Shown here piece by piece: positions 27,538-28,386 of a stretch of 64,000 nucleotides of DNA. Origin of the DNA: Shigella phage sb3; sequence record PQ666541. The stretch is one strand, 5' to 3'. The notes beneath the pieces are model-generated. The model did not search any database, was not told where the DNA came from, and saw nothing but the letters and a program-made list of their open reading frames with translations. Position 1 is the stretch's first letter. The number at the start of each line of letters is the position of its first letter. The translations under genes were made by a program, and so were the position numbers.

Positions 27538-28386
27538 TTAATCAACTGCTATTGGATGAATAGCATTAAACTTATGAAATGCTTCTGATTTTTCTTTGCG
27601 CGAAACACACATGCGAAGAACCTTTAATGGCTCGTCTTCTTCACCCAACGATTTTCTCTTTTCAATATTCGATGTTTTCCAACGAGCTTGCTCTGGAAAC
27701 TCTCTATTGATTTGCTCAAGAGCTCTATTATGTTTTGAATTACTACGAATTGAACTGCACCCGCCCGGAGCCTGTGCTTTTCCAGATACAACCAGATATT
27801 TGAACAAGGCCAAATGCGGATAACCTTGATTAATTAAATTGAGAAATGCATACATATCTTCGCATAAATCAATTTTTCCATACCCAATTTGTTCTGTTGT
27901 AAGTTTTCCAAGGTCATACCAAGTATTCGTGAATCCATATGAATTTTCACGATAATTACCCCAAGATGAAGTAATTTTAAAAATTGGTAAACGAGCATGA
28001 CCATGATAATACCCGCAATCCATGGCATCTTCAACGTATTGAATCAATTCATAGAACTGTTCACGAGTTAACTGATTAATTTTATCTACGCAGCGACGAT
28101 CATCTTTCTTTCGCATTGAACTCATACGAATAGTAGTATCATCATCAATCATCCAAATTCGTTGACCTGCATACATATCAGTAATTGCTTTGCGAGTGCC
28201 AGCAATTCCATTAACATCATCGGGAATAGTTATAATTTTGGCTCTAGACCCGTAAGCATCATAATAAGCTTTTTCTTCATGTTTACGTACTACAATATGT
28301 GGTTCATAATCAGATGGAAACATATCAAGGGCAGAAACTGCCCCTACGCGTTGATAGCTTGGAATTACGAATTGAATCATTTCCAC
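27538..28386 (-). CDS. Putative glycosyltransferase at the beta-gt locus (possibly beta-glucosyl-HMC alpha-glucosyltransferase as in T2/T6)
   Basis: 282 aa between uvsX and 42; DxD-like MIDDDTT motif; not recognisable as T4 beta-gt (351 aa). Confidence 0.5.
   Translation of the reverse strand: MEMIQFVIPSYQRVGAVSALDMFPSDYEPHIVVRKHEEKAYYDAYGSRAKIITIPDDVNGIAGTRKAITDMYAGQRIWMIDDDTTIRMSSMRKKDDRRCVDKINQLTREQFYELIQYVEDAMDCGYYHGHARLPIFKITSSWGNYRENSYGFTNTWYDLGKLTTEQIGYGKIDLCEDMYAFLNLINQGYPHLALFKYLVVSGKAQAPGGCSSIRSNSKHNRALEQINREFPEQARWKTSNIEKRKSLGEEDEPLKVLRMCVSRKEKSEAFHKFNAIHPIAVD

Follow-up and report, generated by a model that had tools for sequence, protein, structure and literature searches.

A gene of phages T2 and T6 for a beta-glucosyl-HMC-alpha-glucosyltransferase (ba-gt, also named ggt or TAGT, for TET-associated glycosyltransferase; HMC and hmC, hydroxymethylcytosine) was cloned and named decades ago. 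The present analysis concerns a gene of Shigella phage sb3 (sequence record PQ666541) that very probably belongs to the same type; the stretch of 64,000 nucleotides (nt) in which it lies is referred to as the window. In phage T6, deletion of ba-gt leaves DNA with alpha-glucosyl-hmC only, which becomes a substrate of Brig1; wild-type T6 DNA, containing mainly gentiobiosyl-hmC, is not degraded by Brig1 in vitro (Hossain et al., PMC11078745). The glucosidase BapA frees glucose from DNA of T6(delta g-gt), not from wild-type T6 DNA (2026 preprint, PMC13160076). Tequatroviruses of the Durham collection that combine an alpha-glucosyltransferase (alpha-GT) with a TAGT were analyzed by high-performance liquid chromatography and mass spectrometry (HPLC/MS) and contain hydroxymethyldeoxycytidine (hmdC), alpha-glucosyl-hmdC and alpha-gentiobiosyl-hmdC, but no beta-glucosyl-hmdC. 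In QOTSP and six others, approximately one third is hmdC and two thirds are alpha-gentiobiosyl-hmdC, and Geo, BGP and EL have the three nucleosides in a ratio of about 1:2:2 (PMC13390438).

The sb3 gene is contained in a minus-strand open reading frame (ORF) of 282 codons, which starts with GTG in the program-made ORF list (27538..28386). The translated sequence matches PHROG 842, 'beta-glucosyl-HMC-alpha-glucosyltransferase', with E=7e-89 over profile positions 3-269 of 270, and the Pfam family TAGT (PF20691) with E=1.8e-9 and 38.3 bits over profile positions 2-205 of 205; the curated gathering score of the latter is 27.5 bits. A search of NCBIfam with the ba-gt protein returned no family at E<=1. 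Full-length homologues were found by tblastn in 685 records among 50,697 phage records and, judged by this number together with the PHROG 842 match, the ORF is not a chance one. With the T2 enzyme the protein shares 97.5% identity over 282 amino acids (aa) (tblastn; 275 of 281 aligned positions in the per-site comparison), with the T6 enzyme (gene 'ggt'; tblastn) 96.8% over the full length, with the homologue of QOTSP 97.9%, and with that of Escherichia phage EC121 100% over 280 aa (residues 3-282). A second tier of homologues, with 63-65% identity, is found in T4-like phages of Klebsiella and Enterobacter; the homologue of Serratia phage Muldoon shows 47% identity, and the TAGT family as a whole, with 342 representatives in an exhaustive HMMER search (E<=1e-3), reaches down to approximately 20%. 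Taken together with the locus, the predicted fold, the intact conserved residues and the presence of gene 42 and alpha-gt, these matches indicate that the gene very probably encodes the T2/T6-type beta-glucosyl-HMC-alpha-glucosyltransferase, which would place a second glucose onto alpha-glucosyl-hmC. This enzyme is known under its own name and characterized genetically, the gene occupies its customary position, and GenBank already contains an identical protein.

The T6 gene (YP_010067197.1, AXN58083.1) shares locus, length and Pfam family with the sb3 gene and is separated from it by seven to eight substitutions; each of the two public T6 sequences has, in addition, a lesion that is absent here. 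The T2 gene (YP_010073690.1) has the same locus and length, but contains R11H and P251S, whereas sb3 has R11. Compared with the TAGT of QOTSP (vB_Eco_QOTSP, CAJ1093119.1; Durham collection) and with the EC121 protein, there is essentially no difference at the protein level, although the QOTSP gene differs by about 5% in nucleotide sequence. In all close relatives ba-gt is located between gene 42 and uvsX, and over the surrounding 24 kb the window is colinear, with approximately 97.7% identity, to Shigella phage pSs-1 and comparable Tequatrovirus genomes.

Reading of the DNA revealed an ATG at 28380, two codons 3' of the GTG, which overlaps the stop codon of gene 42 as ATGA and is preceded at a distance of 6 nt by a Shine-Dalgarno-like GGTGA. 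Because the annotated homologues of T2, QOTSP, BGP and Geo all begin at this ATG (843 nt, 280 aa), the real product is probably 280 aa long; the 282 aa reported in the first-pass annotation hold for the ORF beginning with GTG, not for the likelier product. Residue numbers given below follow the 280-aa product. The overlap with gene 42 could permit translational coupling of ba-gt.

In T4 the slot between gene 42 and uvsX holds beta-gt (PF09198, GT-B fold) along with segA, a homing endonuclease gene. As is presumed for ba-gt, T4 beta-gt is a UDP (uridine diphosphate)-glucose-dependent inverting DNA glucosyltransferase. It acts on bare hmC and ba-gt on alpha-glucosyl-hmC, and the two enzymes are unrelated in sequence and fold. 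The shared position is the one point in favor of a diverged T4-type beta-glucosyltransferase that adds a single beta-glucose to hmC. This identity was rejected and is given no weight: a BLASTP comparison of ba-gt with T4 beta-gt detected no similarity (E=3.3), no PF09198 match was obtained for ba-gt at E<=1, and a tblastn search of the full 64-kb window with T4 beta-gt gave a best E of 1.3, i.e., no beta-gt gene. In blastn, homology to the T4 locus extends to 27446, barely into the beginning of uvsX, and sets in again at 28395, within the final codons of gene 42; the whole segment between these points is non-homologous to T4, a clean cassette difference between the two phages. Furthermore, the model described below has a GT-A fold as opposed to the GT-B fold of T4 beta-gt (PMC13216743), and mass spectrometry (MS) finds no beta-glucosyl-hmdC in phages with ba-gt (PMC13390438). 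The spacer between uvsX and ba-gt is only 79 nt long (27459..27537) and contains GTTATAAT; segA is missing here.

Both enzymes that would make the acceptor, gp42 and alpha-gt, are encoded in the window alongside ba-gt. Gene 42 is approximately 94% identical to that of T4 at the nucleotide level (blastn), and the alpha-gt protein is 90.5% identical to T4 alpha-gt and more than 99% identical to that of many T2/T6-like phages. In the proposed pathway, gp42 would make hydroxymethyl-dCMP (dCMP, deoxycytidine monophosphate), to be incorporated into the phage DNA; alpha-gt would then add an alpha-linked glucose to hmC and so provide the acceptor of ba-gt. The latter, presumed to be a DxD-dependent glycosyltransferase of about 32 kDa with a GT-A fold, would move a second glucose from UDP-glucose to the first one in beta-1,6 linkage, giving alpha-gentiobiosyl-hmC. 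The DNA of sb3 would accordingly be expected to contain alpha-gentiobiosyl-hmC for the most part, besides hmC and a little alpha-glucosyl-hmC, and to lack beta-glucosyl-hmC. According to the papers cited above, the finished DNA should be a poor substrate for Brig1 in vitro and for BapA, yet should remain sensitive to GmrSD-type enzymes; BrxU, a member of the GmrSD family, cuts the DNA of all these Durham Tequatroviruses (PMC13390438). The ba-gt assignment is useful for annotation and for the choice of phages against defined hosts; it adds nothing new.

These results bear out most of the first-pass annotation, which had seen the gene flanked by uvsX and gene 42, pointed to a DxD-like motif, did not recognize the protein as T4 beta-gt, noted alpha-gt elsewhere and offered a T2/T6-type gentiobiosyl enzyme as one reading. 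The homology search that it proposed gave full-length matches to the T2 and T6 enzymes and a TAGT match above the cut-off, homology to T4 beta-gt was not found, and the protein is predicted to have a glycosyltransferase fold. The unusualness that it implied did not hold up: alpha-GT together with TAGT is what the majority of Tequatrovirus genomes have and what is usual in T4-like coliphages. Pairing of TAGT with either an alpha-GT or a beta-GT is the majority arrangement, and it is T4 that is exceptional, the pair of alpha-GT and beta-GT being present in just 6 of 753 phages, T4 included (Nucleic Acids Research 2026, PMC13216743).

An AlphaFold2 model was built from an alignment of 11 sequences, after a word-indexed protein search had given 12 relatives. 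The model consists of a single GT-A domain (mean predicted local distance difference test score, pLDDT, 80.3; predicted template modelling score, pTM, 0.81). GT-A enzymes that align to it are mostly of the inverting GT2 type, a likeness that would fit a beta linkage made from UDP-alpha-glucose; the T6 TAGT as modelled with AlphaFold3 is GT-A as well, sister to GT2 (PMC13216743). The cellular GT2-type enzymes TarP (6h1j), BcsA (9fmv) and AvpGT (9jma) are 8-16% identical to ba-gt. Their GT-A cores align over approximately 185-198 of the 280 residues, and the C-terminal 70 residues or so of ba-gt are without counterpart; unlike these enzymes, ba-gt would have as acceptor a sugar on duplex DNA.

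To gauge conservation, 109 full-length TAGT representatives with 19-63% identity were aligned. Just four columns of this alignment are invariant (R11, D80, D175 and G207), and eight further ones are at least 90% conserved (I6, P7, R63, D79, D81, G186, G206 and R212). All of these residues are present in the sb3 protein, as is the complete active-site set that was tested, namely R11, D79-D81, E174-D175, G206-G207 and R212. By comparison with other GT-A enzymes, R11 is a putative nucleotide-sugar binding residue, D79-D81 a putative site for binding the metal and the UDP diphosphate, and E174-D175 holds in D175 the candidate catalytic base of an inverting transferase. The spacing of E174-D175 from the DxD motif recalls the ED/TED motif of GT2 enzymes.

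Some points weigh against the assignment as a gentiobiosyl-forming enzyme. Evidence for the activity comes from close relatives only, i.e., from T6 deletion mutants and from MS of QOTSP and others. The roles named for single residues are analogies with GT-A enzymes alone. Residues 132-149 of the model are disordered, with pLDDT <50, so that the model leaves some of the acceptor side uncovered, and a PDB sequence search gave chance matches only (E>0.7), with no solved structure of the family. Finally, the extent of the modification is not readable from the sequence, levels varying among phages whose proteins are 96-99% identical.

A TAGT-family enzyme that uses a different donor, makes a different linkage or glycosylates hmC directly would yield a product other than gentiobiosyl-hmC. 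The breadth of the family noted above leaves room for such an enzyme, and many phages have a solitary TAGT with neither alpha- nor beta-GT, which means that other specificities must exist (PMC13216743). In addition, the sb3 protein differs from the proteins of T2, T6, QOTSP, BGP and Geo alike at T23S, E33K and R92K, its only such differences in the site-by-site comparison. These three substitutions are conservative, however, and lie in variable columns, and the identical EC121 protein exists. Proteins 97-98% identical to that of sb3 have genetic and MS evidence for gentiobiosyl-hmC (PMC11078745, PMC13390438), and alpha-gt is present to supply the acceptor. In the Mosigvirus/RB69-type system, an additional transferase gene lies between rIIA and gene 39, the topoisomerase gene (PMC13390438); in sb3 no Aat-type transferase gene is found there. 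The rIIA-gene 39 gap holds no ORF of at least 120 aa that could be an arabinosyltransferase of this type, a sugar-nucleotide cluster not having been specifically searched. Such a deviating enzyme is considered extremely unlikely. Arabinosyl or other sugar chemistry was rejected on the near-identity to MS-characterized phages and the lack of an extra transferase beside rIIA. The 'another sugar chemistry' that the first-pass annotation had allowed for does not agree with the alpha-gentiobiosyl-hmC found by HPLC/MS in QOTSP (PMC13390438) or with the reduction to alpha-glucosyl-hmC in the T6 deletion (PMC11078745, PMC13160076).

If ba-gt is taken as the T2/T6-type enzyme, the level of gentiobiosyl-hmC may still differ between phages: it is 5% in T2, approximately 40% in Geo and BGP and approximately 70% in T6 and QOTSP (PMC13390438). 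At positions 50, 89, 95, 97, 202 and 203, which distinguish Geo and BGP, sb3 has the residues of T6 and QOTSP. Because the allele matches T6 and QOTSP at all informative positions, a profile like theirs, with about two thirds gentiobiosyl-hmC, would be expected. In the opposite case ba-gt would be weakly active or poorly expressed, as is inferred for T2, and the DNA would be mostly mono-alpha-glucosylated, with a few per cent gentiobiosyl-hmC. T2 shares gene and locus and has such a low level (PMC11078745, PMC13160076), and the intermediate values of Geo and BGP likewise indicate that a phage can have the gene without its level being set thereby (PMC13390438). A weak or poorly expressed enzyme in sb3 is nevertheless very unlikely, given that the allele has R11, that H11 is confined to the T2 lineage, that the six distinguishing positions are those of T6 and QOTSP, and that the coding sequence (CDS) is intact and could be coupled to gene 42 in translation. 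The DPPY motif is absent from all six frames of the 64 kb, which cover the dam region of T4, and a T4-type Dam gene was thus not found; a Dam-like gene was noted only in the lower-gentiobiosylation phages Geo, BGP and EL (PMC13390438). No causal conclusion on the level of gentiobiosylation is drawn from this absence.

Only the reference alleles of T2 and T6 offer something of research value. R11H is present in all T2 records (PV958097, NC_054931/LC348380, MH751506, AP018813 and PV648363/4) and in the T2-identical SV76; a 40-nt probe across the His-11 codon matched only those eight of the 50,697 records, and a degenerate DNA pattern applied to IMG/VR matched five alleles with Arg-11 but none with His-11. 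T2 contains approximately 5% gentiobiosyl-hmC, compared with approximately 72% in T6. Since R11 is invariant in the family and the T2 level is so low, a hypomorphic R11H is a simple and testable explanation, and the substitution may account for the low gentiobiosyl-hmC of T2. In T6 record MH550421, ba-gt contains an in-frame TAG at codon 10, and the CDS is annotated from Met20 with 261 aa. In T6 record NC_054907/AP018814, a 3-nt deletion removes one GAT of (GAT)3 and with it one Asp of the DDD motif; this shortened protein is the RefSeq entry that served as query and model in PMC13216743. The two T6 lesions may be stock-specific loss-of-function mutations or sequencing artefacts. The ba-gt of sb3 has neither R11H, nor the TAG at codon 10, nor the loss within DDD. 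The wider proposal, that the sb3 allele stands for an undamaged wild-type enzyme and that the alleles of the classical laboratory phages are the damaged ones, with R11H behind the T2 value, is possible rather than probable. If it were true, the level of gentiobiosylation would be an allelic property readable from the sequence, and sb3 would be predicted to be T6-like, at about two thirds. The positions of the features are summarized in Table 1.

Table 1. Location of ba-gt, its conserved motifs, neighboring genes and reference alleles (positions in the window unless a record is named)
Feature	Position	Strand	Basis or remark
ba-gt / ggt / TAGT CDS, 280 aa + stop	27538..28380	-	ORF list, ATGA overlap, Shine-Dalgarno-like GGTGA, PF20691, PHROG 842, homologues
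R11 codon, loop after strand beta1 (IPSYQR)	28348..28350	-	R in 109/109 representatives
DDD (DxD) motif D79-D81, (GAT)3, context WMI-DDD-TTI	28138..28146	-	most conserved motif of the family
E174-D175 'ED' motif	27856..27861	-	D175 109/109, E174 90/109
G206-G207 of PGGCSS loop	27760..27765	-	G206 107/109, G207 109/109
Segment without nucleotide homology to T4	27447..28394		948 nt here vs 1935 nt with segA + beta-gt in T4
uvsX, downstream flank	26277..27458	-	PF21134, PF00154
Gene 42, dCMP hydroxymethylase	28377..29117	-	PF00303 E=1e-15; gp42 annotated at the syntenic T6/T2/T4 position
alpha-gt, DNA alpha-glucosyltransferase	39521..40723	-	400 aa; PF11440 E=2.3e-235
rIIA	5839..8016		gap of 268 nt to gene 39
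Gene 39 (topoisomerase)	8285..10102		gap of 268 nt to rIIA
T2 ba-gt with R11H, PV958097	L002:4007-4849		compare window 28348..28350
T2 ba-gt with R11H, NC_054931	L008:1360-2202		compare window 28348..28350
T6 MH550421, TAG at ba-gt codon 10	L001:4034-4036		
T6 NC_054907/AP018814, ba-gt with one Asp of DDD lost	L007:808-1647		

Within the CDS, 35-55 nt past the start of ba-gt, a GC-rich hairpin with a 9-bp stem, TAGGGGCAG-TTT-CTGCCCTTG, is followed by a T-rich stretch (28326..28346, minus strand). It is identical in sb3, T2, T6, QOTSP and BGP despite varying synonymous sites in its neighborhood, and may be due to chance. A scan of 27300..29400 showed no excess of promoter-like sites (13, compared with 9.7 +/- 3.3 in shuffled sequences) or of terminator-like sites (2, compared with 0.8 +/- 1.0), and no regulatory claim is made.

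In the region from dda to gene 61, an ORF of 248 aa (MKLSKNQIRKITRRLEHTQASAKRR...; 16726..17472, minus strand) has no Pfam match at E<=0.001 and may be a mobile or homing-endonuclease-like insert. A hydrophobic ORF of 49 aa is located between gene 42 and imm (29125..29274, minus strand); the T2 and Geo annotations list it as a hypothetical protein, whereas the examined T4 and T6 records leave it unannotated despite conserved DNA.
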